NCBI GenBank assembly: GCA_964633445.1
Contig: CAZWFW010000001.1
Span: 6,339-70,338, forward strand
Length of the DNA: 64,000 nt
Origin: Candidatus Undinarchaeota archaeon
Lineage (GTDB): Archaea > Undinarchaeota > CAZWFW01
Direction: 5' to 3'
Below, piece by piece: positions 2,605-27,002 of this stretch. The notes beneath the pieces were generated by a model, which saw nothing but the letters and a program-made list of their open reading frames with translations, did not search any database and was not told the origin of the DNA. The translations under genes were made by a program, and so were the position numbers. Every line of letters starts with the position of its first letter. The stretch's first letter is position 1.

Positions 2605-3324
2605 CTACTCACCTCTAATTATCTCCATAGCCTCATTAATGTTAACATTATCTTTTATTATTTTTCCGTCTCTCATAACCGCAATTCTGTCTGCGTAGTT
2701 GGCTATCTGAGGATCATGAGTCACAACTACTACTGTCTTTCCCTCCTTATTTAATCTTTTAAATAAATCCATAATAATTTTTCCGCTTTTTGTATCTAAA
2801 TTACCAGTAGGCTCGTCAGCAAGCACAACTTCAGGATCATTAGCCAATGCTCTTGCAATAGCAACTCTTTGCCTCTCACCCCCCGAGAGTTCCATAGGTT
2901 TGTGAGACTCTCTACCTTTTAACCCTACCTTCTCTAGCAATTCTCTTGCTTTCTTTATCCTCTCTTTCCTAGGGATATTTTTAAATATTGTTGGCAGTTC
3001 TACATTTTCCAGAGCTGAAAGAGTGGGAAGTAAATAAAAAAACTGAAATACAAAACCAATGAAATTTAATCTTATGTCCGCAAGCTCATTTTCATCCAAA
3101 CAATCAACTCTTCTATTTTTAATAAAGACCTTTCCTTCAGTCGGTTTATCCAAACAACCAGCTATATGAAGGAAAGTTGACTTCCCAGATCCACTAGGTC
3201 CCATTATCGCCAAAAATTCGCCCTTTTTAATTCTTATTGAAACACCTTTCAAGGCTTTAACTTTTATTTTACCTAAATCATATATTTTCCAAACGTTTTC
3301 CAATCTTATTACTGATGAACCCAT
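2605..3324 (-). CDS. ABC transporter ATP-binding protein (MacB/LolD-like)
   Basis: Walker [13 protein letters not shown] signature [15 protein letters not shown], Walker [13 protein letters not shown], and an H-loop VVTHD. Confidence 0.9.
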
Positions 3325-4502
3325 CTTCTGAAAATGAAAAACTTTTTCTTCTTCTTTTTCACTTCCTTCCTTCTCTTTACTTTTTCAATAACTTTGCTAG
3401 CATCTTTGTATGTATTACCTACACCAACGGAATTACCAACCCCTATTAAAATTACGCTCCCCCCTTCACCAACCTCTCTAATTAATTCTAAAATCTTTTC
3501 TCTAGCGGGGTTTATAGATTTTACTATTTTCTTATTCATGGGCTCAATAGCTTCAAAAGCATCCATCTTTACTGCAATGGCATCCAACTCTATATTTCTC
3601 TTGCTTGCAATCTCCTCGATAAATGCCTTGTGATAAAAACCTAGACCACCTATAGCAACACCAACACCGCTAGCTACGCTACCAGTCTCTTCCCCCTCTA
3701 ATTTACTAGCAGCATCTACGGTTATTATTTTCTTAATATTTTTATCTTTCTTCAGAATATCTCTAACAGCATCAGCTATCTCCCCAAGTCTCCCTCCAGG
3801 CCCTTTAGCTCTTATAACATAAACCTTTCTTCCTTCAACCTCCTCTTCGGAGCAAACTATATCCTTTGCTATATCTCTAGCTTCCTTAGATATAAAAGTG
3901 GTAACAATTAGAGGGCCTATGCTATCCCCAATAGGTTCATTTTCAAGAAAAGCCTTTGTGCATTTCAGTTCGGATTTAGCAACTTTCATTATTAATGGCA
4001 TTATCATTTGTAGCTCGGCAAGAAAAAGGGGGTTGTTATGTTTCTTAAACATATATAGGTAGTGTTTAACAACCTTCTTTATGGAGTTTAAGCTCCAAAC
4101 AGCTTTTAAAGCCATGGATATATTCATGATGTCTTCCTCACTGGCCTTGGCATTTCTCAGCAATCTTCTCGTTCCGTCTAGAAAACGATCTTCTGATTGG
4201 TCCAGTATATATTTTAATTTTTTTAATATTCCTGAAGGATCAAGATCTACGGGCTCTATAACAAAGAAATTGAGATAATCATCAAGAAACTTCTTAATGC
4301 TTTTCCTGCTTATACCAAATTTCCTAACTCTTGAGGATATCAAATTTCTACCCTTATTTACCATACCTTCAAGTTCAAGTAAGCTGTTCTCAACTCTGAT
4401 TATCATCTGACGTATAAAAAGCCTTGGTAATACAAAAAGTAGCAACATGAAAAATACTAGTGATAATAACCAATCTTTCCAATCTGTTGGTATTAGCATC
4501 AT
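3309..4502 (-). CDS. conserved archaeal hypothetical protein with N-terminal TM helix (possibly DUF1512-like)
   Basis: 397-aa ORF with an N-terminal hydrophobic segment, a Gly-rich [11 protein letters not shown] region and a C-terminal lysine-rich tail. No catalytic motif recognised. It overlaps the ATPase gene by 16 nt. Confidence 0.5.
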
Positions 4503-5197
4503 TCTTCTTTAGCTTTTAATATTTTTAATAATTTTCTTAAAATTCCTAGCATAGTATTTACCTCCCTACCAGTAAGGTTTGCTCTGCCAATAATCCTCTT
4601 AAACATTATTATAGCTTTTCTTCTTTTCTCCTTACTACTAGGAAATTCTACTATTTCTAAAAGTTCTTCAATATATTTAAATAAAACCTCCTTTTCTCTT
4701 TGGGAGGCAAGCCTAAATTCCCTTATTTTCAAGCTGGATAGCTCATAGAGGAAAATAGCAACGGCATGCGACAAATTTAATGTTGGATAATCTCTTGATG
4801 TTGGAATCGTTACCAAAATATCACACAGTTTTATTTCCTCGTTTAGCAAACCAATATCTTCTCTTCCAAACACAATCGCCACTTCTCCTTTGAGCATTTC
4901 CTTTAAATCCTTCAGCTTAATATAACTTCTTAAAAAATTAGAATCGCTTTTTGGGATCTTCGCAGTAGTTCCAATAACGAAGTCAAATTCTTTTATTGCA
5001 TCCTCAAACTTTCTAAAAATTTTAACATTGTTTACCAGCTTATAAGCGTGCTTTGCAACTTTCTTTATTTTTTCATCCTCAAAACTAAATTGGGGGTTAA
5101 CGACTATTATTTTCTTAAAACCAAAATTCATCATAACCCTTAATATTGCTCCAAAATTCTCAGGGTTTTTTGGTTCAACAAGAATTACAGTTATCAT
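4499..5197 (-). CDS. SpoU/TrmH-family (SPOUT) RNA 2'-O-methyltransferase
   Basis: ITVILVEPKNPENFGAILRVMMNFG is the typical N-terminal motif of TrmH/TrmJ-class SPOUT methyltransferases. I place the start at the internal Met (MITVIL), which gives a 4-nt overlap with the upstream gene instead of an 88-nt overlap. Confidence 0.7.
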   Translation of the reverse strand: MITVILVEPKNPENFGAILRVMMNFGFKKIIVVNPQFSFEDEKIKKVAKHAYKLVNNVKIFRKFEDAIKEFDFVIGTTAKIPKSDSNFLRSYIKLKDLKEMLKGEVAIVFGREDIGLLNEEIKLCDILVTIPTSRDYPTLNLSHAVAIFLYELSSLKIREFRLASQREKEVLFKYIEELLEIVEFPSSKEKRRKAIIMFKRIIGRANLTGREVNTMLGILRKLLKILKAKEE

Positions 5198-5559
5198 GCT
5201 ATATGCGCTAAAAATAGGTATTTTACCGAAAGTATCAGTATTATGTAATATAAAAATACTGCAACAAAGCTCTTTAACCAACTATCCAAACCTGCAAGGA
5301 AATTCAGCATTACTATCATAAGAATGATGGAGATAAAGCTTCCAAAAACAATGCCAAATAATGGAAATGCTATGAATGATCCAAAAATTTCTACAAGAAT
5401 AAAGGTTACTATACTGCCCAAAAAACTCCCACCTAAAAGTTTCACTATTATTCCTAAAACTATTGCGCTTACGATTATCACAAGAAGTCCTATAATGCTA
5501 ATGTGAAGATTGGAAACTAAGATTTTTTCTATTAGTTGAATATAAGCAGATTCAAGCAT
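5194..5559 (-). CDS. small polytopic membrane protein (hypothetical)
   Basis: 121 aa, almost entirely hydrophobic with 3-4 predicted TM helices. Confidence 0.45.
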   Translation of the reverse strand: MLESAYIQLIEKILVSNLHISIIGLLVIIVSAIVLGIIVKLLGGSFLGSIVTFILVEIFGSFIAFPLFGIVFGSFISIILMIVMLNFLAGLDSWLKSFVAVFLYYIILILSVKYLFLAHIA

Positions 5560-5562
5560 TTA

Positions 5563-5634
5563 TGGACCCGCGGGGATTTGAACCCCGGGCCTCCTGCTTG
5601 CGAAGCAGGCGCTCTACCCCTGAGCTACGGGCCC
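5563..5634 (-). tRNA. tRNA-Ala (anticodon CGC)
   Basis: I folded the cloverleaf by hand. Acceptor GGGCCCG/CGGGUCC includes the G3:U70 Ala identity pair. D stem GCUC/GAGC. Anticodon stem CCUGC/GCAGG with loop UUCGCAA. T stem CGGGG/CCCCG with loop UUCAAAU. Discriminator A; no encoded CCA. Confidence 0.85.
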
Positions 5635-5767
5635 TAATGTTATGTTTTATTGTCTCTAGAATTTAAGTTTTAGGAAAGTATTTATCTAACAATCTAACAT
5701 AAAAACATTTTCCATGCTAAATCCTTTTAATAAGTTAATAAAAAATTTAAATGAAAAAAAAGAAGTA

Positions 5768-5923
5768 TTAAACGATTATACCCTCTCTGCGATTCTTTTT
5801 ATTGATCTCTCTGTTCATACGATGTAAACCTCTCCTTACTAGCCACCTTCTAAATTCTTCAAAAGCTTCCTTTTCATATTGCTCATCAATTTTTTCTAGA
5901 ACTTCCTCGATTTCCATAATCAT
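5768..5923 (-). CDS. possible small ORF (51 aa) below the ORF-track length cutoff
   Basis: My own translation reads MIMEIEEVLEKIDEQYEKEAFEEFRRWLVRRGLHRMNREINKKNRREGIIV. It is preceded by GGTGAT (Shine-Dalgarno-like) 5 nt upstream of the ATG and lies in the tRNA-Ala/hypF intergenic region. Confidence 0.25.
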   Translation of the reverse strand: MIMEIEEVLEKIDEQYEKEAFEEFRRWLVRRGLHRMNREINKKNRREGIIV

Positions 5924-5998
5924 TTTGATCACCCAAAAGATTAATTAGTTTTAATTAGTTAGCAGTATAGCGCTAGAGTATGTTGCCATTATTTCAAA

Positions 5999-8275
5999 AT
6001 GAAAAACCGCAAAAAAGCAGTCAAAATAATAATTAGGGGAGTTGTTCAAGGCATAGGTTTTAGACCCTTCATTTTCAGAATTGCCAACTCGCTTAATGTT
6101 AAAGGATATGTTAAAAATGTGAAGGGTGGTGTGGAAGTTTATGCTGAAGCCTCTCAAAAGATTTTAGATAGTTTTTTAAATGAAATAATGAGTAAAAAGC
6201 CACCTTTATGCAAAATTGATGAAATCGAAATTAAGAATGTGTCTCTCGCCAATTTCAAGTCTTTTACTATAGAAAAAAGTGGTTTTGAAGATGAACCAGA
6301 GATGGTAATCCCTCCTGATATTGCTATCTGCAATGAATGTGTTAAGGAGCTACGCGATAAAGAAAATAGAAGATTTGGATATTTTTTCATAACATGCACT
6401 TCTTGTGGGCCAAGGTATACCATAATTGAGGATTTGCCTTTCGATAGAAAGAATACCACATTAAAATGTTTTAAATTATGTAAGGAATGTCTTAGGGAAT
6501 ACCTAGATCCCAAGAATAGGAGGTTTCATGCCCAGACAATTGCTTGCGGTAAATGCGGACCAAAGCTGTTTTTGAAAAGTAGCGGTAAGGTTTTGCGTAA
6601 TAATGTTATTAAAAAAGTTGCAAAATTACTGAGTAATGAAGAAGTTGTTGCAATTAAGGGTTTAGGAGGGTATCATCTAGCTGTTAGGGCTGATAGCAAT
6701 TTTGCGGTGCTAAATTTAAGGAAATCACTGAGAAGATCGCAAAAGCCTTTTGCTGTAATGTGTAAGGATGTTAAAACTGCAAAAACGTTTGCAGTAATTA
6801 ACGAAAGTGAGAGAAGGTTGCTAGAATCTTGGCAGAGACCAATAGTTGTTTTGAGAAAAAGCAGTGATTATTGGTTAAGCAAATATGTAGCACCAGGACT
6901 TGATACAATAGGGGTTTTTCTGCCATATACAGCTTTACATTACCTCTTATTTGACCACATAGATTTTCCAATAATCCTAACATCTGCGAATTATCCTAAC
7001 GAGCCTATTGCTAAAGACGAAAATGAAGTAGAGACGTTTGGTTTTGTTGAGCATATTCTTTACTACAATAGAAGAATAGCTAACAGATGCGATGATTCAG
7101 TCGTTAGGATCGTTGCAAATGAAAAAGTCTTTTTGAGAAAAGCAAGAGGTTATGCACCCTGCACGATGAAGTTGATTGGTGTTGACAAGAAAATTCTAAG
7201 TTTGGGCGCGGAACTCAATGTAACCTTTTCAATTTATAAGTATGGCAAGTGTATAACCTCACCGCATATAGGAGACGTTGATAATGAAGCTTGCTTAACA
7301 CATTTGAAGCAAACTTTGTTTAAATTTCTTAGAATGTTAAAAGTCAAACCTGAGATAGTTGTCTGTGACTTACATCCAGGATATCTAACAAGCTCTTTGG
7401 CTGAGGATCTAGCAAGCAAATTTAAGGCAAAGTTAGTTAAAGTTCAGCATCACGAAGCGCATGCATTTTCATTAATGGCTGAAAAAGGGATTAATAATAT
7501 TGTTTGCATTGTTTGCGACGGTTTAGGCTATGGTAATGATGGCAATATATGGGGTGGTGAGGTCTTTGCAATTAAGGGTAAAGAAGTTATAAGAGCTGGT
7601 AGGCTCGAGTACCAACCAATGCCTGGTGGAGAGCTTACAATAAAGTATCCTTTAAGGATGGCTGCAGGAATACTATTCAAAATTTTTGGGGATGATGCTA
7701 AGAGAATCTTAGCTAAATATGAAAACAAATTCAGATATGGTAGAAAGGAAATCACCGCAATTTTAAATCAAGTTATAAATAAGATAAATACTCCTTATAC
7801 AAGTAGCACTGGTAGAATTCTTGATGCGATTTCTGCATTGCTGGGCGTGTGTTATGAAAGAACTTATGAGGGGGAACCAGCAATGAAACTTGAAGCCATT
7901 GCTAAAGGAAGAGATTTGGGTTTTAACTTTAACATTAAAAAAGAAGACAATGCCCATGTTTTAATAACATCTTCAATTATTGAGGAGGTTGCTAATACCA
8001 TCAATCAAAAAAATGCAAAGGATGTAGCATTATCAGCTCATCTAGCATTAGCTAGAGGTTTATTTGAAATTGCTAGGAGAGTATGCAAAAAATATGATAT
8101 TGATAAGATTGGTTTTACTGGAGGCGTCGCTTACAACACTATAATATCTAGCGAGCTCAAAAGACTTTGCAATGAAGAAAATTTTGAGCTTTACTTACAA
8201 ACAAAATATCCTTGTGGAGATGGGGGGATATCCTTAGGTCAAATTTATAGAACATTGTTCTTTAAGGAAATATAA
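5999..8275 (+). CDS. hypF: [NiFe]-hydrogenase maturation carbamoyltransferase HypF
   Basis: N-terminal acylphosphatase domain (VQGIGFRPFI). Two zinc-finger pairs (CNEC..CTSCGPRY and CKEC..CGKCGPK). A YrdC-like domain followed by a Kae1/carbamoyltransferase domain. 758 aa, typical for HypF. Confidence 0.9.
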   Translation: MKNRKKAVKIIIRGVVQGIGFRPFIFRIANSLNVKGYVKNVKGGVEVYAEASQKILDSFLNEIMSKKPPLCKIDEIEIKNVSLANFKSFTIEKSGFEDEPEMVIPPDIAICNECVKELRDKENRRFGYFFITCTSCGPRYTIIEDLPFDRKNTTLKCFKLCKECLREYLDPKNRRFHAQTIACGKCGPKLFLKSSGKVLRNNVIKKVAKLLSNEEVVAIKGLGGYHLAVRADSNFAVLNLRKSLRRSQKPFAVMCKDVKTAKTFAVINESERRLLESWQRPIVVLRKSSDYWLSKYVAPGLDTIGVFLPYTALHYLLFDHIDFPIILTSANYPNEPIAKDENEVETFGFVEHILYYNRRIANRCDDSVVRIVANEKVFLRKARGYAPCTMKLIGVDKKILSLGAELNVTFSIYKYGKCITSPHIGDVDNEACLTHLKQTLFKFLRMLKVKPEIVVCDLHPGYLTSSLAEDLASKFKAKLVKVQHHEAHAFSLMAEKGINNIVCIVCDGLGYGNDGNIWGGEVFAIKGKEVIRAGRLEYQPMPGGELTIKYPLRMAAGILFKIFGDDAKRILAKYENKFRYGRKEITAILNQVINKINTPYTSSTGRILDAISALLGVCYERTYEGEPAMKLEAIAKGRDLGFNFNIKKEDNAHVLITSSIIEEVANTINQKNAKDVALSAHLALARGLFEIARRVCKKYDIDKIGFTGGVAYNTIISSELKRLCNEENFELYLQTKYPCGDGGISLGQIYRTLFFKEI

Positions 8276-12063: not shown

Positions 12064-15000
12064 TTATTTTATAATAAGAGTTATTGCCTCGCTCTGTCCT
12101 CTTATATCACTATACATACCATAAGCTACCGCTGGCTTGGCATAAACGACGCTTGGATATTCAGCAACTAATTCATATTCTATGCTTGCCTCACCCAAAT
12201 GATTAATAAACCACGAGATTTTGTTACCATTAATTTCATACCTCACAATATTCTCACTTAAGTCATCCTTTAGCGAAGTTTCTTTAACCCTGAATCCAGG
12301 AGGTATGTAATCTTCAAGAATAACATAGTAGATATCGTTGCCCCTAATGCTTATTTTAACATTCACAACATCCCCAACCCTTGCAACTGTTTTGTTATAA
12401 CTCTTTTCAACGATTATATCTTTTTCAGGTAAAATCTGCAGCGTTTCGGTTGTTTGCTTAACAATTATGGTATAATAAGGATTGCCAATACCCTCTTTTC
12501 TTATTTCAATAACATTTCTTCCTGTTTCTAAATATTTAGTCACATCAATGATGTAAAGTTCGTCCTTATTTTCCTCAGTTACTGTAAAGCTTTGAACCTC
12601 TTTACCATTAACAAAAATGCTTAGTTTATAGTCCGCTTTTTGTTCCTTAGTAATCTTACTATACTCATATATTGCTAGCAGCGCCTCAGCAGTATCTTTT
12701 GTTGTATACCAACCGTAATATCTCTTGTTCTCAATTAACCACTTAATCGCCTCTTGAACAATTCCGTAATACTTAACATTCTCCGTTGCTAATAACGCCC
12801 TTATAGCACATGCAGTTGTTTCAACATCACCTGCAAGTGCTTTACCATGCCAATGGTTATTAACTGCCATGTCATAAAGCTTTTCGGCTAAATGGCTGGT
12901 ATCTCTTCCTGCTTTTTCATAGGCTAGGATTATTAGGGAGAGTGTGTAAGCATCCTCAACATTCTCATGATCTTCCAAATATTCAAGTGCTTTCTGAATA
13001 TGATAATCATCTTTGCTAACACCACTTTCAAGCAAAGCTAAAGTTACGTAAGCTGTCATAGCAACATCATTACCCCTTAACCAATGACTACCATGCCATG
13101 CACCATTGTATTCTTGTCTCTGCATCAAAACCCTCTGAGCCCCATCAATTATGCTCCCATCAACATAGAAACCTACCTGTTTGGCTTTAGCTAGGCCAAA
13201 TAATACGTAAGCCGTCATGAACTCATTAGTAGCATCATTTTCCCACCACCCCCATCCCCCATCGCTATGTCTAAAGCTATAAATTCTTTGTAAACCTTTA
13301 GCTATCATATCATCAAGCTTTTTCTCAAATTCCTCATCAAGCATACCTTTTTCTTTTAGAAGCATTTTGATTATGATATCAGGATATAAGCTACTCATCG
13401 TTTGTTCAACACATCCGTAAGGATACCTTGCAAGTCTTTCTACCCCTACAATTGAAATGCTTAGTAAAGTAGGTTGGATGAGGATCTTAGCATTGGTAAA
13501 TTCTGGAATAGCATTTTCGTATATCTCAAACTCCTTTTTAACATAATTGCTTTCAAGCACACCTGAAAATGATAAGGTTATTGGCTCTATCTTTGGCGTA
13601 ATCAAAATTTGCTTTCTTACGCCATCTGAATACTCGCCTGAATAAGCAACTACAGTGACATTTGCTGAGCCATAACTTGTTAACTTAACATACCAACTTA
13701 CCTCCTTCGCTTCATTTGGTCTTAATCTAACTACTTTTGTTTCATTATCCAGTATGACAAATTTCTTGGATTGAATTAAGGTAACATAAGCATCTATGCT
13801 TTCATCCAAAAAGTTAAACACCCTAGCGCTTATGGTTACCTCATCCCCAACCGTCGCTTCACTAGGCACATGAACCTTTATAAAGAAGTCTTTCTTGGCA
13901 ATAACCTCAGCATCATTATTACTTCCAACATCACAATTCTTAGAGGCTGCTAAGGCAAGAACTTGCCACGTTGTTATACTATCAGGCAATTTGAATTTTA
14001 CCTCTGCGGTACCATCTTTTGCTATAATTTCTTTCCATAAAGCTGTGTCTGGGAAGTAGTATCTTATCTCTATTCCCTTAGGAATATACCCAACACCCCT
14101 TGCCTCTTCTTCTAGCGTTTTAGGTGCCCCAATACCCGCAGCCCATTCCTCATATGTGAGATACTGTGGTGCGGCCCTCATAACCATTCCTCCCATAAGG
14201 AACATGCCTATAAGCAAGAAAACTACAACAAAAATTGCTGAGAGAATCGCTACACAAACAAGCACTGGTTTTCTCATATCTTTTCTTATAGCAGCTAAAA
14301 TGGCCAAAGCTATTATGAAAATTGGTAAAATCCAGAAGGCAGATGCTCCTGAAATTACTAAAAGAAGTAGAGAAAATGGAACAGCTAATCCAGCCAAGTA
14401 GTATCTTGTAGGTCTCCTTTTTACTTTGAGAATTACCAAAGCACCAAGCAAGGACGCAGTTGAGATGGTTGCCCACGCATCTTCATCTACATATCCGATT
14501 CCGAGAACATCAATAATTACTGCAAGAATAAATGCAGCCCCTAAGATTAAAGTTGGTAGTATAGCATACAAATATCTTGCTCTTCCAGTTTTAGCTAAAT
14601 ATACTGATGCAAGCGCTAGTGTTAGCAAAACTATAACTATAGCTAGAAGAATAAGTTTTTCAGCAATTTCGTTAACTTTCCACCTATCCACCTCAATTGC
14701 TGTTAGCGATACTCTGATGCTTTGAGCAGGGTTAGCATAATAGTGCTCAAATGGCGAGAATTTGTTTTCTTTCAGTATTTGAACAGATTTATCTATTACT
14801 GCAAAACTAACTAATGCTGAAATTGGCTTATTATCTTTAGAAACTTTAAATTTTATAGTTGCTTCTTCTCTTGGCTCATAAATTTTCTTATCGGATATTA
14901 TTTCAACATCTAGTTTCTTATCTGGCAAAACGTATATTGAAATTTCGTCATATGGGCAGGGAACACCATAACTTCCTTTAACAAGTTTTGGCGAAACATA

Positions 15001-16701
15001 TTCATAAGCATAAGTTCTATAGTAAGGATAACTGTATTTTCTGCAATCTTTTAAGACATATGCTCTTATAATAGCGTTCTGATATGAGGGCTTAGCTTTG
15101 ATAGTTAATTCAGCTTTTGCATCATTATCAAGCCTTACAGCATAGAAATCTGATGCATAAGATCCTAGAACACTCACATAAACGATTTCGTTTCTGTACT
15201 TCTCCTTTGCCAGTATGCCAAGCTTTATATCCTCGTTTTCTCTATATTCTTTCTTATCAGAGAAAACAACTATGTTTTTTTGCTCAATTTCATTAACTTG
15301 TGGTCTGCAATAAATACCCCTTCTGGAGTAATACCAGCAAGGTTTATAATTTAGGAAAATCTCTTTTTCTGCTGAATAAACACCATCATCTATGCTGAGT
15401 GTTATTTTAACATATTCAACTCCGCTTGGGTACCTGAACTTTATTAAAAACCCAGCACCCCTGCTTGCACCTTCGTCTAGTACCTCCTCCTGCAACTCGT
15501 TATCAACAATTTTATATCCTATAAGCTTCCATGTAGTTCTCGCATTACTTGCCTCTGTGCTATCAGGATATGCTATTGAAACGTAAACTTCAACATTGTC
15601 CCCCTCTCTATAAACTTCCTTGTTTTTCTGAATTTCTACATTAAATGCAGATGTTACGATGGGTATTTTCTTTATAGCTGAGGTTTCTATACCTAAAACT
15701 TCGCTTTTTGCTTCTATTACAAGGGACTTTGGATATCTCCAATAATGGTGGTAGTAATAGGGAATCTCAAAGGGAAATCTAACTATGCAAATTCCTTGGG
15801 AATTTGTTATACAGCTATCCTGTTGAATAATATTCCTTTCACGCCACCCAGATACTTCCAAATAAACCTTGTAATCGATTTTCTGGTTAACAACTGGATC
15901 TCCGAAAATATAAGTCAATTTGAATTTTACCTCAAACTCCTTATCATCCCTTGTAATCCAGTTTTTGCTCAGAATATCTAATTTAGCCTCTGGTTTTTCG
16001 TATTTTCTTATCTCGACAACCAATTTTTCAGTAGTATTCCCATATAATGCTGTAAATGAATAGTTTCCAATCTCAGCTTCTTTATCTATAGGGAAGCTAA
16101 GGGAAAAATGACTAAAATCGTCTGTCTCAACATTTTTCTTAAAGATAATTCTATTAGACGGATTTCTTACTATTAAAGCAACGGTTTTATGAGTAATTGG
16201 TGCGTATGTTCCATTGATTTGCTGCCAAACAAAACCAGCAACCTTTATTTCCTGGCCTGGCTTATAAATTTTTCTATCTGAATATAAATATATCTTAGCT
16301 TTTCTTTTCTCGATCTTTATCATTCTAGAGATCTCTCTGCTCTTACCGTGGTGCCATGCTTTAACTTTAAGCTCATAATTCCCTTCTGGTAAGTCTGGCA
16401 AAGTTATTCTTGCCATACCTGCTTTATTTGCTATTACGGTTTCCTCAAAATCGCCAATCCCAAAAGTTATTTTTGCATAAGGTAGTGGTTTGTAATCGGG
16501 GGATAATGCCATAGCAAAACCGTTAAGCTCTTCACCAGCATATTGCGTATCAGATATTTCTAAAAGCAGATTTATTTTCGTGTATTTGTTGTATAAATAG
16601 AAAAGCTTAGATAACCATAGCGGTGATGAGAAAAGCAGAATGCTTAAAGCTATAAGAGATATTATCGCAAACTTCAATTTTCTAAAAGAAACTTTTTTCA
16701 T
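12064..16701 (-). CDS. alpha-2-macroglobulin-like thioester-containing protein with an internal multi-helix transmembrane module
   Basis: 1545 aa with a signal peptide and beta-rich MG-like repeats. IRYYFPDTALWKEII matches the A2M post-bait FPETWLW motif. Thioester motif GCVEQ is at nt 13403-13417. An alpha-helical TED-like region follows (YVLFGLAKAK, AYVTLALLESG, LSLIILAYEKAG). About 170 hydrophobic residues (roughly 6 TM helices) are encoded at about 14160-14665. Confidence 0.8.
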   Translation of the reverse strand: MKKVSFRKLKFAIISLIALSILLFSSPLWLSKLFYLYNKYTKINLLLEISDTQYAGEELNGFAMALSPDYKPLPYAKITFGIGDFEETVIANKAGMARITLPDLPEGNYELKVKAWHHGKSREISRMIKIEKRKAKIYLYSDRKIYKPGQEIKVAGFVWQQINGTYAPITHKTVALIVRNPSNRIIFKKNVETDDFSHFSLSFPIDKEAEIGNYSFTALYGNTTEKLVVEIRKYEKPEAKLDILSKNWITRDDKEFEVKFKLTYIFGDPVVNQKIDYKVYLEVSGWRERNIIQQDSCITNSQGICIVRFPFEIPYYYHHYWRYPKSLVIEAKSEVLGIETSAIKKIPIVTSAFNVEIQKNKEVYREGDNVEVYVSIAYPDSTEASNARTTWKLIGYKIVDNELQEEVLDEGASRGAGFLIKFRYPSGVEYVKITLSIDDGVYSAEKEIFLNYKPCWYYSRRGIYCRPQVNEIEQKNIVVFSDKKEYRENEDIKLGILAKEKYRNEIVYVSVLGSYASDFYAVRLDNDAKAELTIKAKPSYQNAIIRAYVLKDCRKYSYPYYRTYAYEYVSPKLVKGSYGVPCPYDEISIYVLPDKKLDVEIISDKKIYEPREEATIKFKVSKDNKPISALVSFAVIDKSVQILKENKFSPFEHYYANPAQSIRVSLTAIEVDRWKVNEIAEKLILLAIVIVLLTLALASVYLAKTGRARYLYAILPTLILGAAFILAVIIDVLGIGYVDEDAWATISTASLLGALVILKVKRRPTRYYLAGLAVPFSLLLLVISGASAFWILPIFIIALAILAAIRKDMRKPVLVCVAILSAIFVVVFLLIGMFLMGGMVMRAAPQYLTYEEWAAGIGAPKTLEEEARGVGYIPKGIEIRYYFPDTALWKEIIAKDGTAEVKFKLPDSITTWQVLALAASKNCDVGSNNDAEVIAKKDFFIKVHVPSEATVGDEVTISARVFNFLDESIDAYVTLIQSKKFVILDNETKVVRLRPNEAKEVSWYVKLTSYGSANVTVVAYSGEYSDGVRKQILITPKIEPITLSFSGVLESNYVKKEFEIYENAIPEFTNAKILIQPTLLSISIVGVERLARYPYGCVEQTMSSLYPDIIIKMLLKEKGMLDEEFEKKLDDMIAKGLQRIYSFRHSDGGWGWWENDATNEFMTAYVLFGLAKAKQVGFYVDGSIIDGAQRVLMQRQEYNGAWHGSHWLRGNDVAMTAYVTLALLESGVSKDDYHIQKALEYLEDHENVEDAYTLSLIILAYEKAGRDTSHLAEKLYDMAVNNHWHGKALAGDVETTACAIRALLATENVKYYGIVQEAIKWLIENKRYYGWYTTKDTAEALLAIYEYSKITKEQKADYKLSIFVNGKEVQSFTVTEENKDELYIIDVTKYLETGRNVIEIRKEGIGNPYYTIIVKQTTETLQILPEKDIIVEKSYNKTVARVGDVVNVKISIRGNDIYYVILEDYIPPGFRVKETSLKDDLSENIVRYEINGNKISWFINHLGEASIEYELVAEYPSVVYAKPAVAYGMYSDIRGQSEAITLIIK

Positions 16702-16707
16702 GAAAAT

Positions 16708-18504
16708 TCACCACATAACCTTCTTAATGGCATTCCTTTTCCATACTATGATTATAATGAAAAGAATTAGCAAAAATGTCCAGAGAATCTTAGACTCAAG
16801 CTTCATGCCAACAACCTCAACATAAACTTCCTCATTCGGTTTCAAATTTCTAAATTTCCCTTCCAAATACTTATTCATTCTTGGAATCTCTATTTCTATT
16901 GGTACACCTCTCTTTGTTACAACAACCTCCTCAACTTGCTTCTCAACACCTATCTCCCTTAAAACTTGAGCTTGCTGAGCAAAAAATCCTTTACCACCCA
17001 GCGTTATTTGTCTATATGGTCTTGTGGGAATAAATTCAACAATCTTCAACTCCATTTCAGGTTTCGAGCTCATTTTCAATTTTTTGAAATCTGTTGGCAG
17101 ACCTAGCTTAATCGCCCCTTCAAGAATTGGTGCTGAAATCTTGGGCAAATACGCTAAGTAAGTTAATAGAACATTTCCTTTTTGAACATTATCTTGTGTG
17201 TAGATTACTATTAATTCGAAATCTCTATAGTCATTACCAACTTTTTCTGAAAGAGGCAGAGGAATTTTTATTTTTTCTTGCTCCTTATAGGCGAAAGCAT
17301 TTTCACCGTCTATCAAAGCTCCCCAGAACGTTGCATTATCTGGCAAAGTCAACTCCAATGTTTTACCAGGCTCCGTATTTACAATGCGATACGTTGCTTT
17401 AACAAGTGCAAAATCCTTTGTAGGTAATATATCGTACGTTGCTTGCTTAATAATAGTAGCTAAAACACCTACTTCCTCAACTTTTTCTTTGGATATAAGC
17501 AGAGAAAATTTTTGGCCTTCATACGTTGCCACCAAAACGTAATCTGCAGCATATTTTCTTCCAAAATCCAGCAAATCCTGCCTTTCATACGGGGATATCT
17601 CCCTTACATTAGTTGCAGATGTAACGTTAATCTCAAATCCCTTTGCATATACTGCCAATGCACAAGCATACGCATCTGTAGCTCCTTTTTCTAAAAATAT
17701 CGTTGGCTGTGTAATATTGAGAGTTAGAACTTCAAATTTAAGCGTTAATAGAAGACTGTTTGTAGATCTAGGCAAGACTGCTGAGAGAGTATTATTTTCA
17801 ATCTCAGCAAAATCTAAAAGATGATAGTCGCTTCCAGCATAAGTGGCTATCGCATCCTCCAATCTATAGTTTGATGGGAAACTTAATTTTATGTAATTAA
17901 AGCTACCCGCGGATGTTGGGTGATATATAAATATTGCTTTGTCCTTATCTGCTAGGGTTATTATAGCATATGCCCTCTCTATTTCCTGCGGTAAAGTTAT
18001 CTCCTGCCATTCAGATTTAACATTTAGAGAATTTGCATTTGTAACCAGCCAAACAATCTTGTTTTCAACCCATTCATAGGGTTCAGGAGTGGGGTGAACC
18101 TTTAATTTTCTATAAAATTCATTATCGAACTCATATTCCATCTCCAAAATTTTTGCGGGGCTTGGCAAAGAAATTGAAGATTCCGCCTTATTCTTACAAA
18201 TCTTAATCCCATCAGCTAAGATTATATGTTTACCAGAAGTTAAATTAATTTTAAGCAAGTTGTAAGCATATTGCTCCTCAGAAACTGGGTTATTATCTAC
18301 ATAAACATCTTCAACAGCAAAATCCCCTAATGGCAGAGTGATTGTTGTATTCCTGAATGCTGAAATTTCTATTCTTAGCGAGACATCGCACTTATTCTCA
18401 GAAATCTTGTAAGCAAGTTCGTATTTATTTATGGTGTAATCCTGAGCATGTGCGTAATTCAAGCTTGTCAAGACCAGTAAAAGTAATATAAACAGACCCC
18501 TCAT
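16708..18504 (-). CDS. secreted protein with C-terminal TM anchor (hypothetical; co-operonic with A2M-like gene)
   Basis: 598 aa. Signal peptide MRGLFILLLLVLTSLNYAHA and a C-terminal hydrophobic helix ILWTFLLILFIIIIVW. The stop lies 7 nt before the A2M start codon. Confidence 0.55.
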   Translation of the reverse strand: MRGLFILLLLVLTSLNYAHAQDYTINKYELAYKISENKCDVSLRIEISAFRNTTITLPLGDFAVEDVYVDNNPVSEEQYAYNLLKINLTSGKHIILADGIKICKNKAESSISLPSPAKILEMEYEFDNEFYRKLKVHPTPEPYEWVENKIVWLVTNANSLNVKSEWQEITLPQEIERAYAIITLADKDKAIFIYHPTSAGSFNYIKLSFPSNYRLEDAIATYAGSDYHLLDFAEIENNTLSAVLPRSTNSLLLTLKFEVLTLNITQPTIFLEKGATDAYACALAVYAKGFEINVTSATNVREISPYERQDLLDFGRKYAADYVLVATYEGQKFSLLISKEKVEEVGVLATIIKQATYDILPTKDFALVKATYRIVNTEPGKTLELTLPDNATFWGALIDGENAFAYKEQEKIKIPLPLSEKVGNDYRDFELIVIYTQDNVQKGNVLLTYLAYLPKISAPILEGAIKLGLPTDFKKLKMSSKPEMELKIVEFIPTRPYRQITLGGKGFFAQQAQVLREIGVEKQVEEVVVTKRGVPIEIEIPRMNKYLEGKFRNLKPNEEVYVEVVGMKLESKILWTFLLILFIIIIVWKRNAIKKVMW

Positions 18505-19130
18505 CTTACAACGCTTGCTTTTTCTACAAATCCATAGCTTGCCTCAGCTAGGATTCCCGCTCTTACTTTTGGGGTCGGATGGAAAAGTAGATCCACAAAT
18601 TGAACTAGTGTAAAGATAAGAATACATAAAGTTACTATAATTAAAATAACTGTCTCCCAATCTTTTCTCTTTTCATGCTTAAAATATAAGTAAAGATATC
18701 TTATACTTGCAGCACCTCCTAACCATATTGAGATTATATGTAACACTACTGGCGAATGATCTGTTAAACTATAAAGAATGTTTAACGGTAGGATGGCAAG
18801 CATGACTAAAGTTGCTACCAAAAAAGTTACAAGGTTTCTTGAAAATGCATTAATAACAGTGTCTCTTGAGCCAAAAATCCATGTAAGCATATAAAGAGGA
18901 ATTGTTGCAAAAAGAATTGTTAAAATTTCTGTTACAGGAAATTTCCACGCAAATGCTAAAGATGTTTGGAAAATTTTATCTAATAAGTATCCGTAGATTG
19001 CCCCATAGATTGAGGAAAATATAATAAGCGCCAAGGAAAAATATAAGACGGTTATTTTTTCCTTGTTTAGCATATCAAAACTCTTCTCAGGCTTTTTTAG
19101 GAGAGATATTACTGCTGTTATAGCACCCAT
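18501..19130 (-). CDS. polytopic membrane protein (hypothetical), first gene of the A2M cluster
   Basis: 209 aa with about 6 hydrophobic helices. 4-nt overlap (ATGA-type) with the downstream 598-aa gene. Confidence 0.5.
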   Translation of the reverse strand: MGAITAVISLLKKPEKSFDMLNKEKITVLYFSLALIIFSSIYGAIYGYLLDKIFQTSLAFAWKFPVTEILTILFATIPLYMLTWIFGSRDTVINAFSRNLVTFLVATLVMLAILPLNILYSLTDHSPVVLHIISIWLGGAASIRYLYLYFKHEKRKDWETVILIIVTLCILIFTLVQFVDLLFHPTPKVRAGILAEASYGFVEKASVVR

Positions 19131-19295: not shown

Positions 19296-20252
19296 TCAAC
19301 CAAGACTTGCTAGAAACTTTATTCTCTTAAGAGTATTCGGATGTGTGCTAAGCAACTCCATAATTCTTTCGGCAAATCCTACTCTTATTTTCTTACTCCT
19401 TAAAGCTGCAAGCTCGTCTTCTTCAATTTTTCCACTCATATCCATATCGATTTGCTTTAATTCAGTAATTTCGTTGTAAGCCCTTGAAACATCATTTAAA
19501 AAGAATGCCTTTAATCCCTCAACTCTCCTCAATTCGCTTTCATCACTTCTTGCGGAACCATAAACTATCTTGTAAAGCGCTGAAGCTAGAGCGCTTGGCT
19601 TATTACCAAGCTTAACACTCCCTAAATCAGCATAGTACTCTCTTATTCTTGAAGCATATAGAACGACAAGATTTGTTATTAGGTAAAATATAAATGCTGC
19701 TAACCCAATTATTATTGCTTGCGCTGGTCTTTCCTCAAATGCTGCAACATAAATACTGTTTCTTGCGATCATCCAGCAAATTAGTGGTATTGCGCTTAAC
19801 ATCGTAATTATTATGACATCCCTATTTTTCAAGTGCGAAATTTCGTGCCCTAAAACAGCTTTTAATTCCTCTCTATCAAGCAACTCTACTATTCCTCTTG
19901 TTACACAAACTCTACCATCTCCAACTCCTCTGCCAAATGCAAATGCGTTTGGTATGCTTAAGTTGCATATACCAACTTTAGGTTTTCTAATTTTTGCTTT
20001 TCTCGCGAGCTCTTCAACAATTTCATGCAACTCTGGGTATTCCTCTTTGCTAATATATCTTACACCCATGCTAAGCTCCACAATCTTAGGACCGATAAGA
20101 TATTGGATAAAGAGAAGAAAACATGCGAAAGATACTGCAAACGCAATGCTATAAAATCCAAAAATAACACTTACTATAGATGCTATAGCATAGAATAAAG
20201 CAAATGCTAGCATCAAAACAAAAAACATCTTTATTCTTAGGATAAATGTCAT
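19296..20252 (-). CDS. htpX: HtpX-like M48 zinc metalloprotease
   Basis: HExxH zinc site in LGHEISHLKNRD, N-terminal TM helices, and a downstream Glu-containing region typical of M48 peptidases. Confidence 0.8.
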   Translation of the reverse strand: MTFILRIKMFFVLMLAFALFYAIASIVSVIFGFYSIAFAVSFACFLLFIQYLIGPKIVELSMGVRYISKEEYPELHEIVEELARKAKIRKPKVGICNLSIPNAFAFGRGVGDGRVCVTRGIVELLDREELKAVLGHEISHLKNRDVIIITMLSAIPLICWMIARNSIYVAAFEERPAQAIIIGLAAFIFYLITNLVVLYASRIREYYADLGSVKLGNKPSALASALYKIVYGSARSDESELRRVEGLKAFFLNDVSRAYNEITELKQIDMDMSGKIEEDELAALRSKKIRVGFAERIMELLSTHPNTLKRIKFLASLG

Positions 20253-20504: not shown

Positions 20505-23500
20505 TTGAGGGGATTCCAACATACAGGTATGAAAGCCATTTTCAAAGACTTTTGCCCAAACTGTAATGGGGAAATAGATGATGAGAGACTTTGGCATAAA
20601 GTTCCTTGCGAAAAGTGTTTACCCTTATCTTTGGACAAAGTTAAAAAACTAAGCGAAAATCTCAGCAATTTAGAATTTAAAGAGCTAATTTACGAGTTAC
20701 TAAATGAAAGAGGAACTCTAAAGAATTATTCAAAAATATATGAGCTGGAGAGAAGGGTTGAGGAAGTTAACAAGATTTTTGAGGCATGTATAGGCAGCGG
20801 TCTTTGGTCTGCCCAGAAAGTTTGGGTAAAGAGAATTTTAAACAAAGTAAGTTTTGCTTTGATAAGTCCTACAGGAATGGGAAAAACAACGTTTGGTATG
20901 GTAATGTCCCTTTATTTGGCAAAGCATGGTAAGAAATGTTACATAATTTTGCCAACGACGATCCTTGTTAAACAAATAAACGATAGACTTGAAGAGTTTA
21001 TGGAAAAAAGCGGGGTTAGAGTTAGAGTTTTAGCATATCATACCGAATTAAAAAAAGGCGAGAAAGAGGAGGTAAAGGAGAAGATAACTAAAGGAGAATT
21101 CGATATATTAGTAACATCAAGTCAATTCCTAGCAAGAAACTTTGAGATAATAAAAAAGCAGAGATTCTATTTCATATTTGTGGATGATGTTGACGCTTTT
21201 CTTAAAGCATCCAAAAACATTGACAGGGTTTTGTTTCTCATGGGATTTTCTGAAGATGCCATCAAAGCCGCTATGGAGATTATTAAAATTAAAAAACAGT
21301 TAGTTGTCAGGAGGGATAAAAATCTCGAAGATAAGCTAAAAACTCTTGAAAGAAGTTTGGAGGAGTTTAAGGATGTCGAAAGCATTCTTGTGGTTTCCTC
21401 AGCAACTGGTAAGGTTAAGGGCGATAAGGTAAAAGTTTTTAGAGAATTACTCAACTTTGAAGTTGGCACTGCAAGGGAAGGGGCTAGAAATATAGAGCAT
21501 ATTTGGCTTGAAGGCAAGCTAGAGGATATCTGTGAAATAATTAGGAAAATGGGTGGTGGTTGCTTAATATTTGTTCCTATAGATGCTGGTACAGAGCTTG
21601 CCAAGGAAATTGAGCAGTTTTTAATTTCGAAAGGAATTAACGCTAAAGCTGTTCATGCAAAAACTAAAAAGAGTGTTATTGATCGCTTTGCTAAAGGGGA
21701 AATTGATGCGTTGATAGGAGTAGCGAGTTATTATGGTGTTATTGTGAGAGGATTGGATATTCCCGAGAGGGTTAGGTATGCAATATTTTATGGAATTCCG
21801 AAATTCAAATTCTCCTTAGAGATAAAGGAGAGGAATCCGATTAGGGTTCTGTCCCTGCTATCTACCTTAAGGGAATTTTCAAGTAACAAAGAAAGAGTTG
21901 ATAGAATGATTATAAAATTAAGAAGGATACTGTCAAAGCTGTCACCAGAGGATTTGAGGAAAGTTGAGGAAAGCCAACAGTTAAATGATTTTTTGGTGTA
22001 TGTTAAGCAAGAATTTGAAAAAGCTGCTGAATTTTTGCAGAATATGCTCAAAAATAAGGAGGTTCTAGATAAAATAGGAAAAAGCCCGTATATTTCTCTA
22101 GTTAAAGAAAGTGAAGGATTATTCATAAAAATACCTGATGTAAGAACATACATACAGGCTACAGGTAGAACTTCAAGAATGTATGCTGGTGGTATTACCA
22201 AAGGAGCTTCCTTTGTCTTTATAGATGATGAAAAGGTGTTTAATGGTTTGAAAAGGCAGCTGATATTACTTGATGAGGAGTTCAAAAGTATTGGTGAAGT
22301 TGATCTTAAGAAGATTAAGGAGGAGATAGAAAGGGATAGGAAATTGCTTACTGAAATCAGGGAGGGTAAAGTTAAAGTTGAGGCAAAAGAACCCGTTAAA
22401 TCTTGTTTGTTTATTGTTGAATCCCCAAACAAAGCAAAAACAATTGCAAATTTCTTTGGTAGACCATCTAAGCGTAGAATTGGTGAATTGGTTGCTTATG
22501 AAACACATACTGGAGATTTCGCTTTAACAATAATTGCAACTGGTGGACATATTTTAGATTTAGCTCATGATGGTATATATGGGGTTAAGAGGGTTAATGG
22601 TAAATTTATTCCGATCTACACGACAATTAAAAAATGTAGGAAATGTAATGAGCAATTTGTTGAGGGTGATGTATGCCCGAATAAGAAATGCAATTCAAAG
22701 GACATATTTGATAGCAGGTATACAATTGAAGCATTAAGGCATCTTGCAGATGAAATAGGATATGTTATAGTCGGTACAGATGCTGATTCGGAAGGTGAGA
22801 AAATTGCTTGGGATGTAGCAACATTAATCGCACCTTTTGCAAAAGAAATAAAGAGAGCTGAGTTTCACGAGGTTACTAGGAGAGCTATTTTGAACGCTTT
22901 GGAAAATCCAAGAGAAATTGACGAATTTAGGGTTAACGCTCAAATTGTAAGGCGTATTGAGGATAGGTGGATTGGCTTCTACTTAAGCCAAGATTTATGG
23001 AGAATATTTGAAAAGGGTTGGCTTTCGGCTGGTAGGGTGCAAACGCCAGTACTTGGCTGGGTAATTGAGTTTGAGAAGCTTGCAAGAAAGAAGAAGTCAG
23101 TAGTTAGGATAGTACTTGAGAATGATGCTGTTGTGGATTTTGAGTTTAAAAACATTAGACAGGCTAAGAAATTTGCTGAAGATGTTGAGGAAGCGTATGT
23201 GGAAATACTTGAGGAGAAAGAGGAGAAAATAAAGCCGAATCCCCCATATACAACTGATACTTTACTAAGGGACGCTTCTCGCTTCTTCAGACTTGATGCT
23301 CCAAAGGTTATGCAAATTGCGCAGGATCTTTTCGAGGCTGGGTTATGCTTGACACCAGACACCTACGTAATTATGCATGATGGAAGTATTAAGAAGATAG
23401 GCGATATCTCCGAAAATGAAAATGTTTTGGGCTTGAACAATCTACATGAGATGCCTGCAAAGGTACTAAGGTTTTGGAAGATACCGTATAAAGGTGTGAT

Positions 23501-25712: not shown

Positions 25713-27002
25713 ATGAGGCTAGAGGAATTCTTTAAATTGATTGAAAATGGAGAAAGTGAGAGAATAGAGTTTAAGGAGAAAGTAACGAAAAATATTGCTG
25801 AGGAGATAGTTGCATTTGCAAACTCTTTGGGAGGTTACTTGTTAATAGGAGTGAAAGACGATAAAACACTTGTAGGTCTTAATACTAAAGAATTGCAAGA
25901 GGCCAAAAGATTCATATCTAATTGCCTAGCGAATATTGCTCCACCCATAACAGTAAAATTTCATGAAGTGAGAATAAATAGAAAGAGTTTTCTAATAGTG
26001 GAAGTTCCAAAATCAAAATATATTTGTTCCATTGGTGGTATAGCCTACATTAGAGTTGGCACATCCAAAAGACCTTTATCAATTCAAGAAACACTAACTT
26101 TAGGCGCAGAAATTCTACTTTTTCCCTTCGATAAAACACCAACAAAAATTCCTGCAAAATTAATCTGGGAAGATGCCTTGAAGAGGTACGAAAGAGGTTT
26201 GAAGGAGAGAAATATTAAGGTAAGCGATATCTACTATCATTTAAAAAAATTGGATGTAATTATATCAAAGAAAGGTAGAGATTTCTTGACATTTGGAGGT
26301 GCCTTAATTTTCCTTGAAAACCCCCAAGAATATTTTCCACAGAGTTACTTAAGGGTTTGCTTTGAAGAAGGTTACACAAGAATCTCAGGCCCTCTATGGA
26401 AAATTATTGACAAGTTTGTGGAAGCTTTCTTTAAGCAAGAGATCCTTAGATATGTGCTAAAAGGATTTAGGAGAATAGATTATGAAATGTTGCCAGCAAG
26501 GATTTTAAGAGAAGGTGTAACTAACGCTTTGATTCATAGAAATTATACAATATCCTCTGAAACTTTTGTTTCCTTAGAAAGCAACGCTATCAAAATAAAG
26601 AATCCTGGAGCCTTTCCTCCTGGAGTTACCCCTGAGGATCCTCATCCTGTGGCGAGAAATCCACTAATATATGAATTGATGTTTAATATGGGTTACATAG
26701 AGAAGCAAGGTGCTGGGGTAAAAATGATATTTGAAGAAGCGAGAAAAAATCCTTATTTGGATGTTGAATATAAGATTTCGCCAAACTTCACAACATTGCT
26801 ATTAAAATTTAAGGTTGAGCTAGATGAAGTCGATAAGAAAATACTAGACGCCTTAATTGGTCCAAAATCTTCAAGTGAGATTGCTAGAATTGTAGGATTA
26901 AGCAAACCAGCTGTAATTAATAGGCTAAACAGACTAATTGATGCCAAACTTGTTAAAAGGATTGGAAGTGGGGCAAAAACCAAATATAGGTTAACAAGTT
27001 AA
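25713..27002 (+). CDS. COG2865-type protein: N-terminal AlbA_2 (Schlafen-like divergent AAA) domain + HATPase_c-like domain + C-terminal winged HTH
   Basis: N-terminus ESERIEFKEKV..AEEIVAFANSLGGYLLIGVKDD is the characteristic AlbA_2 box. The C-terminus KKILDALIGPKSSSEIARIVGLSKPAVINRLNRLIDAKLVKR is a wHTH. The gene is flanked on both sides by the 60-bp direct repeat. Confidence 0.7.
   Translation: MRLEEFFKLIENGESERIEFKEKVTKNIAEEIVAFANSLGGYLLIGVKDDKTLVGLNTKELQEAKRFISNCLANIAPPITVKFHEVRINRKSFLIVEVPKSKYICSIGGIAYIRVGTSKRPLSIQETLTLGAEILLFPFDKTPTKIPAKLIWEDALKRYERGLKERNIKVSDIYYHLKKLDVIISKKGRDFLTFGGALIFLENPQEYFPQSYLRVCFEEGYTRISGPLWKIIDKFVEAFFKQEILRYVLKGFRRIDYEMLPARILREGVTNALIHRNYTISSETFVSLESNAIKIKNPGAFPPGVTPEDPHPVARNPLIYELMFNMGYIEKQGAGVKMIFEEARKNPYLDVEYKISPNFTTLLLKFKVELDEVDKKILDALIGPKSSSEIARIVGLSKPAVINRLNRLIDAKLVKRIGSGAKTKYRLTS

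Follow-up and report, generated by a model that had tools for sequence, protein, structure and literature searches.

Transmembrane helices at the bait position of an archaeal alpha-2-macroglobulin homologue suggest a membrane-integrated protease trap

Results

A thioester protein with a membrane block in its bait loop

We analysed a stretch of 64,000 nucleotides of contig CAZWFW010000001.1 (positions 6,339 to 70,338) from the Candidatus Undinarchaeota assembly GCA_964633445.1, here called the window, in which a gene of the minus strand (12064..16701) encodes a 1545-aa thioester protein of the alpha-2-macroglobulin (A2M) family in a single uninterrupted open reading frame (ORF). The main finding is that a block of six predicted transmembrane (TM) helices is inserted in the loop that splits macroglobulin domain 6 (MG6) of this protein, i.e. 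at the position of the bait in A2M and of the anaphylatoxin domain in complement proteins. With moderate confidence, we interpret the protein as a membrane-integrated A2M protease trap of a thermophilic archaeon, one that would keep a residual bait beside the membrane.

The protein is a thioester-containing A2M homologue and has the sequence characteristics of the A2M/TEP (thioester-containing protein) family, namely MG domains, an A2M domain with an FPETWLW-like start and a CxEQ motif. At its N-terminus the basic stretch MKKVSFRKLK precedes a signal peptide or signal anchor (aa 10-30; 16612..16674; this and the other features of the gene lie on the minus strand), and the region (MKKVSFRKLKFAIISLIALSILLFSSPLW) has no cysteine, so that there is no lipobox. 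The MG2 domain (aa 136-222; 16036..16296; PF01835, E 2e-17) and the end of the A2M_BRD domain, which is the first half of MG6 (aa 584-642; 14776..14952; PF07703), come next. The match to PF07703 covers profile positions 84-139 of 140 with an E of 0.0017, under the curated cutoff; the family is significant in relatives, for example at 36 bits in P0118 (proteins and loci found in the searches carry P and L numbers). A pre-membrane linker (aa 643-682; 14656..14775) leads to the TM block (aa 683-842; 14176..14655), and a post-membrane linker (aa 843-877; 14071..14175) leads from there to the FPDTALW motif (aa 883-889; 14035..14055), which belongs to the first strand past the bait position. The C-terminal half comprises the A2M domain (aa 886-975; 13777..14046; PF00207, E 8e-23), the thioester domain (TED; aa 1083-1347; 12661..13455; PF07678, E 1e-38) with the thioester motif GCVEQ (aa 1096-1100; 13402-13416), and an MG8/bMG10-like beta-sandwich (aa 1434-1531; 12109..12402; PF17973, slightly below the cutoff at 25.9 bits).

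A structural model of aa 347-1545 was built by AlphaFold2 (AF2) with an alignment of 30 sequences. The mean predicted local distance difference test (pLDDT) value of the model was 72, with 80-95 in the MG, CUB and TED parts, and the strands of the C-terminal MG8/bMG10-like region also had high values. Beta-sandwich repeats are seen in the N-terminal half of the model, and short helices in the pre-membrane linker, which differs by two substitutions from that of the orthologue P0002.

The hydrophobic block (LILLAIV...GMVMRAAP) corresponds to aa 682-845 and to window positions 14167..14658, in agreement with the interval 14160-14665 reported by the first-pass annotation of the window. Its mean Kyte-Doolittle hydropathy is 1.6 vs -0.31 in the remaining protein, and in 200 shuffles the best 160-aa window never exceeded 0.84. 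The same annotation had counted roughly six TM helices, an even number, and both of our approaches arrived at six. The hydropathy scan placed them at aa 683-702, 711-735, 742-760, 768-786, 787-805 and 812-842 (TM1, 14596-14655; TM2, 14497-14571; TM3, 14422-14478; TM4, 14344-14400; TM5, 14287-14343; TM6, 14176-14268), and AF2 drew them, at low confidence, at aa 674-705, 709-732, 740-757, 766-782, 788-805 and 812-839. The block has no Pfam family match.

Position and topology of the TM block

The block fills the gap between the end of PF07703 and the start of PF00207, and the same gap is occupied in those relatives where both families score well. In a search of solved structures, the sequence from aa 878 onward (EIRYYFPDTALW) aligned with human A2M from residue 704 (TVRKYFPETWIW), which we take to be the strand that immediately follows the bait and completes MG6. 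In the same search, aa 877-878 aligned with C3 at residue 761 (alpha' chain residue 14 in C3b); this C3 strand comes after the anaphylatoxin domain and the alpha'-N-terminus. Because of these two alignments and of the bait-flanking position of the FPDTALW motif, the placement of the block at the bait insertion point by the first-pass annotation is correct.

The topology was derived from hydropathy, charge bias, AF2 secondary structure and helix parity in relatives. The TM1-2 loop AKTGRARY (three Lys+Arg, no Asp+Glu), the TM3-4 loop KRRPTRY (four and none) and the TM5-6 loop RKDMRK (four and one) are strongly basic. The TM2-3 loop GYVDED has no Lys+Arg and three Asp+Glu, the TM4-5 junction has no loop and no charge of either type, and the 15 residues directly past TM6 (AAPQYLTYEEWAAGI) have no Lys+Arg and two Asp+Glu. 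There are thus 11 Lys/Arg in the three odd, predicted cytoplasmic loops and none in the external ones, and by the positive-inside rule the block would begin and finish outside the cell. The basic tail and hydrophobic segment at aa 10-30 predict export of the first half as well. The predicted topology, with both large A2M halves extracellular, fits these features and the mostly even helix counts of relatives, as anticipated by the first-pass annotation, which had put both halves on one side of the membrane. TM6 was also inspected as a cleavable internal signal peptide and rejected, given a hydrophobic core of 29 aa and unfavourable residues at -3/+1.

We considered that the block might be an artefact, either an assembly chimera, a pair of genes fused by a frameshift or a chance hydrophobic stretch, and found nothing in favour of this explanation. 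The reading frame runs without a frameshift or stop through both ends of the block, and the hydropathy of the block is beyond that of the shuffled controls. The same protein is present on a separate 10.8-kb contig of a second assembly (P0282), with 1543 of the 1545 residues identical. The orthologue P0002, from locus L001 of GCA_054010715.1, is 85% identical and has the same block and a conserved synteny, the gene order there being M48 peptidase, 212-aa protein, 598-aa protein, A2M and TIM-barrel protein, with reverse gyrase near. Since three assemblies carry the ORF and many distant relatives have the same design, we reject an artefact as extremely improbable.

TM blocks at the bait site in other A2M homologues

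With aa 1-885 as query, an exhaustive HMMER search of 1.84 billion representatives returned 2969 matches. TM blocks at the same site were present in all of the 10 top matches, in 25 of the top 50 and in 56 of the top 150. Among these best 150 of the 2969 representatives the number of helices ranges from 2 to 10 and is mostly even; a crude count gave two helices in 22 proteins, six in 12, four in 3 and eight in 3, and the few odd counts are probably miscounts. The blocks of relatives end 260-310 aa before GCxEQ, a spacing found in 47 full-length relatives, and that of the window protein ends 265 aa before GCVEQ. Where an annotation is available, the proteins are currently called 'MG2 domain-containing protein' (one Armatimonadota protein included), 'YfaS family' or 'hypothetical protein'.

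In a word-indexed search, almost every match driven by the C-terminal half was an A2M of the ordinary kind, and a loose TM filter flagged 6 of 117, including one ordinary spider A2M. In a scan of species-representative genomes, the best A2M match was 29% identical and an internal TM block was found in none of the 80 loci. As a separate observation, the ordinary A2Ms of L007, L022, L024 and L026 (Iainarchaeum, Vulcanimicrobiota, Synergistia) have a single C-terminal hydrophobic anchor and no internal block, so that they are tethered in another way.

To place the TM state on a phylogeny, a rough neighbour-joining tree was made from the C-terminal part only, with the TM block and the N-terminal half excluded. 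The state changes 7 times on this tree, vs a mean of 42 (minimum 35) with shuffled labels, which indicates few origins as far as a rough tree can be trusted. The window protein clusters with P0002, P0118 and P0119. Besides the archaeal hosts (window, L084 and L090), the hosts include a Firmicute of a spore-forming lineage (neighbours Spo0A, YabP/YqfD, sortase and AgrB), Armatimonadota and a bacterium with an adjacent TonB-dependent receptor. No sequence homology was detectable between the archaeal TM block and that of the clostridial P0026 (E 0.04), and the blocks of the window protein and P0118 are merely colinear, with 22% identity.

A hypervariable linker as candidate residual bait

The first-pass annotation had proposed that the helices replace the bait. 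This is probably not the case, because a short, disordered and fast-changing segment, the 35-aa linker 843-877, precedes FPDTALW; the TM block would thus have been inserted upstream of a residual bait. AF2 draws the linker as coil with a pLDDT of about 30. Compared with P0002, identity is 87-97% in the TM block and 87-100% in the block with its adjoining parts, and falls to 33% at aa 841-870, the minimum of the whole protein. The post-TM linkers of relatives have a median of 66 aa, and their fraction of disorder-promoting residues is 0.70 vs 0.60 in the C-terminal part. Judged from these sequence and model features, the linker is most likely a residual bait held at the membrane surface.

Substitution rates were calculated between the window gene and P0002. 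The whole gene has a dN of 0.077 and a dS of 0.52 (dN/dS 0.15), and the globular parts have dN/dS values of 0.10-0.15. For the TM block (683-842) the values are 0.061 and 0.14 (dN/dS 0.44), which fits a loosely constrained anchor better than a finely tuned transducer. For the linker (843-877) dN is 0.48 and dS is saturated, so that dN/dS is not meaningful. Nucleotide identity to L001 10001-14635 is 93-98% across the central part of the gene (about aa 400-925), with a third-position identity of 0.9-0.97, and 75-88% in the flanks; the linker, with 61-67%, interrupts the otherwise 93-98% identical centre. This mosaic divergence suggests a recent recombination of the centre, broken by the hyperdivergent linker.

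An archaeal three-gene module

Two genes of the same strand lie directly upstream of the A2M gene. The 598-aa protein (16708..18504, minus) carries a signal peptide for secretion as well as a TM anchor at its C-terminus, and its stop codon is 6 nt from the A2M start codon. The 209-aa multi-pass membrane protein (18501..19130, minus) has a weak Yip1 match, and its gene overlaps that of the 598-aa protein by 4 nt. The order of an approximately 210-aa multi-pass protein, an approximately 600-aa C-anchored protein and a TM-inserted A2M, encoded by overlapping or abutting genes in a closely coupled operon, is shared by the window, L001, L084 and L090, so that three archaeal lineages have the module. 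We conclude that the 598-aa and Yip1-like proteins are probably membrane partners of the A2M.

The A2M of L084, P0118, is the next closest relative (28% identity, six helices) and stands behind 211-aa and 610-aa genes on a contig whose Gins51, L44e, S27e and eIF2-alpha genes indicate an archaeon. The 598-aa and 209-aa partners are 27% (E 5e-43) and 32% (E 1e-27) identical to their L084 homologues. L090, found in a metagenome scan with a partner alignment, has 211-aa, 613-aa and 1742-aa genes, the 613-aa product being homologous to the 598-aa partner. Its A2M (2988-8216) has FPDTALW, GCAEQ and about ten helices at the bait position, which include a tandem duplication of a roughly four-helix unit (repeat YIK..SGYHGAD.RFLALGVGGV.VIIGTFLL...), and through this internal duplication the helix number remains even.

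Searches for homologues of the 598-aa partner, with the single sequence and with a profile, returned orthologues only, and its AF2 model has a pLDDT of 32. Beyond the weak Yip1 match of the 209-aa protein, neither partner has a match in Pfam, NCBIfam or PADLOC. The gene directly upstream of the module encodes an M48 (HtpX-like) membrane peptidase (19296..20252, minus) and is syntenic in L001. We considered it as a further member and rejected it as probably outside the module, since it is missing from the modules of L084 and L090. An M48-TPR gene occurs near the Armatimonadota relative in L088.

Bacterial relatives with anti-sigma features

Many relatives of the TM type begin with a cytoplasmic domain of about 85 aa that carries HxxxCxxC and is followed by a TM helix. 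Pfam zf-HC2 was found in the N-termini of 9 of the 44 TM-type relatives, P0151 (E 1e-12) and P0121 among them, and more look alike by eye. In all four bacterial loci that we opened, a gene for an extracytoplasmic function (ECF) sigma factor (Sigma70_r2/r4) is located directly upstream of the A2M gene; in three of the loci, it is either 2 nt away from the A2M gene or overlaps it by 4 nt. The four A2M genes (L088 3405-9016; L089 275-5934; L091 3423-9136; L092 3387-9202) belong to P0151, P0126, P0121 and P0160, which have four, two, six and six helices at the bait site, respectively, and each begin with an anti-sigma domain (zf-HC2 or a similar one). In bacteria, then, a sigma/anti-sigma pair often has the TM-inserted A2M as its extracytoplasmic part, and a complete thioester A2M would be the sensor.

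Two further observations concern these bacterial proteins. Next to the A2M anti-sigma gene of L089, the region 6042-8231 encodes two peptidases, one M4 and one M10, together with an emfourin-type M4 inhibitor. P0067, a 2060-aa protein from a JGI 3300047160 contig, has an anti-sigma-like N-terminus and a two-helix hairpin, and several hundred low-complexity Gly/Pro/Ala-rich residues separate the hairpin from the A2M domain.

The bacterial genes bring in a second explanation, in which the protein would be a transmembrane sensor: a protease-triggered A2M switch whose bait-flanking helices relay the event across or along the membrane, to an N-terminal anti-sigma domain and ECF sigma factor in bacteria and to the Yip1-like partner in archaea. 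The frequency of zf-HC2 among the TM-type relatives and the sigma gene in all four loci argue for it, as do the co-transcription of the window A2M with two membrane proteins in three lineages and the retention of an internal anchor besides the N-terminal one, which suggests a role beyond tethering. The window protein itself speaks against it. It has no zf-HC2 and no cytoplasmic domain: 9 residues, with no Pfam match, precede the first hydrophobic segment, and the cytoplasmic loops have 6-8 aa. No ECF sigma gene is present in its neighbourhood, no output component was recognised by Pfam, NCBIfam or PADLOC, and the constraint on the TM block is relaxed (dN/dS 0.44). To our knowledge, ECF sigma factors are lacking in archaea. 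We consider the sensor the main and a serious rival of the trap for the window protein, although the less likely of the two. The first-pass annotation had named a membrane-embedded sensor as an example of altered trapping, an idea to which the bacterial ECF anti-sigma relatives lend indirect support.

Genomic context in the window

The source is probably a hyperthermophilic archaeon, as judged from its genes. The window has a GC content of 35% and encodes a reverse gyrase (zf_Rg, helicase, Toprim and topoisomerase domains) with an intein and a LAGLIDADG endonuclease (20505-25598, plus strand), from which the hyperthermophilic habit is deduced. The closest solved structures of the aIF5B encoded in the window are 7yyp and 7zag, which we take to be the Pyrococcus abyssi protein. 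Beside the reverse gyrase gene lies one for a Schlafen/AlbA_2 protein with a C-terminal winged helix (25713-27002, plus), and a TIP49/RuvBL-type AAA+ ATPase is encoded at 30120-31481 (plus), with a strong match of 452 bits.

Several other genes of the window encode surface proteins. An 825-aa protein (58801-61278, plus) is a second macroglobulin-domain surface protein, with an N-terminal anchor, MG2 and DUF2341. A 487-aa protein (1083-2546, minus), with a signal peptide at one end and an anchor at the C-terminus, gave CARDB and Ig-like matches, and the region around it is rich in surface proteins. A 1623-aa orphan with no Pfam match (52691-57562, minus) has an N-terminal signal and a C-terminal TM anchor, and its paired hydrophobic segments at aa 433-476 are a possible internal hairpin.

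A third explanation is that the protein is a surface-anchored covalent binder or envelope protein, acting in adhesion or in opsonin-like tagging, with the block as a mere anchor and the linker as a spacer. In its favour, the window also encodes the N-anchored MG2+DUF2341 protein and the CARDB/Ig-like protein with its C-terminal hydrophobic segment, and other prokaryotic A2Ms are anchored by a plain C-terminal TM helix. PMC8416519 likewise discusses archaeal A2M homologues among surface and conflict systems. The full A2M domain order, the native-like model and the flexible, hypervariable segment exactly at the bait position all match a trap, and the constancy of the insertion site across distant lineages is not expected of a loop that merely tolerates insertions. 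We regard this third explanation as unlikely.

Discussion

How a trap stitched into the membrane might work

The features described above are best brought together by a membrane-integrated trap. The signal peptide or anchor would bring the N-terminal macroglobulin domains outside the cell, and the chain would then cross the membrane six times within the MG6-splitting loop and re-emerge. Outside again, it would complete MG6 and go on to form MG7, CUB, the thioester domain and MG8, so that a spring-loaded A2M body would be assembled on the cell surface from both halves, its bait loop stitched into the membrane. By analogy with the family, a foreign protease would cut the linker 843-877, the ectodomain would rearrange and the thioester would couple the protease. 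The complex would probably stay on the cell after cleavage, since the six helices remain part of the N-terminal fragment and both chains are joined by the split MG6. Protease cleavage, trapping and the contacts with the partner proteins are thus inferred from the architecture and from knowledge of the family.

Several points weigh against this interpretation. The bacterial anti-sigma relatives point to signalling over plain trapping. A hydrophobic segment is already present at the N-terminus, so that the second anchor looks redundant and hints at a further role. AF2 confidence in the TM block is low, with pLDDT values of 30-50. The low divergence of the gene centre extends to synonymous sites (dS 0.14 vs 0.5), which suggests recombination and thereby confounds arguments from conservation. 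The divergence of the linker is saturated, and the segment could have been replaced or be an unconstrained spacer, instead of a bait shaped by an arms race. Finally, the partner proteins of the module belong to no recognisable family.

If the bait-loop helices were a transducer, which we put forward only tentatively, bait cleavage and A2M rearrangement would become a transmembrane signal. The last helix leads out of the cell, where the bait comes next, so that the cleaved form would resemble RseA after site-1 cleavage and be a possible substrate of a site-2 protease. Bacteria would then release the ECF sigma factor from the anti-sigma domain, possibly through the last helix as a site-2 substrate, and in archaea the signal might be passed on by the Yip1-like and 600-aa membrane proteins encoded alongside. 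Such a protein would be a prokaryotic complement-like receptor for protease attack at the cell surface.

For the trap and the transducer alike, the architecture matters in several ways. A2M, complement C3/C4/C5, insect TEPs, CD109 and ECAM have been described as soluble or peripherally tethered proteins with a free bait-loop trigger; here the trigger loop is threaded through the membrane, and the design recurs in archaea and bacteria. It offers a concrete and testable system in which to study the action of a spring-loaded thioester protein that is held in a bilayer. In addition, the relatives paired with ECF sigma factors may represent a new way of sensing extracellular proteases, and a conserved three-gene surface module of archaea is defined.

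Comparison with known systems

The first-pass annotation had known of no A2M with this topology, and full-text literature searches, although incomplete in coverage, gave no account of an A2M with helices in its bait loop, and none of anti-sigma factors of the A2M type. In their text, Makarova et al. 2021 (PMC8416519) describe archaeal A2M homologues with MG/Ig domains and a CxEQ TED, usually with a signal peptide, near surface-protein genes and in varied domain organisations; the text mentions neither TM helices at the bait position nor a Yip1-like/600-aa module. A preprint on the CAGE complex was also considered and is unrelated. The architecture with TM helices in the bait loop therefore appears to be widespread but undescribed.

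The AF2 ectodomain is closer to native A2M forms (TM-scores of 0.47-0.50) than to activated ones (0.23-0.34), with the caveat that AF2 may favour native states. The native matches are CD109 (8s3o), A2ML1 (7q1y), A2Moo (7s62) and ECAM (5a42), and the Foldseek match to native CD109 has an E of 6e-52. In overall fold and domain arrangement, the protein agrees with a native A2M.

Bacterial type I A2Ms (ECAM/YfhM and SaA2M) are likewise monomeric prokaryotic proteins with MG, bait-region and CxEQ domains and a tether to the cytoplasmic membrane, and the TM-score of the window model with native ECAM (5a42) and SaA2M (4u48) is about 0.47-0.48. They differ in having an N-terminal lipid anchor, with lipobox, and a soluble bait, whereas the window protein has no lipobox and carries helices in the bait loop. 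The linkage to pbpC typical of YfhM is absent: the neighbours of the window gene are the 598-aa orphan, the Yip1-like protein, the M48 peptidase and a xylose-isomerase-like TIM barrel. In sequence the window protein is less similar to YfhM than to eukaryotic A2M/CD109. Pairs of a zf-HC2 anti-sigma factor and an ECF sigma factor are matched by the bacterial relatives, and the window protein differs from them in lacking the anti-sigma domain.

Native CD109 (8s3o) and A2ML1 (7q1y) are the best structural and sequence matches to the window protein, and CD109 is, like it, a membrane-tethered monomeric member of the A2M family. CD109 is anchored by a C-terminal glycosylphosphatidylinositol (GPI); its bait is soluble, and its bait loop is not known to span the membrane. 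The closest parallel for the site of the insertion is found in complement C3, C4 and C5, which carry the anaphylatoxin at the same point of MG6. In these proteins the insert is a soluble four-helix domain freed by convertase cleavage, whereas in the window protein it is a membrane bundle.

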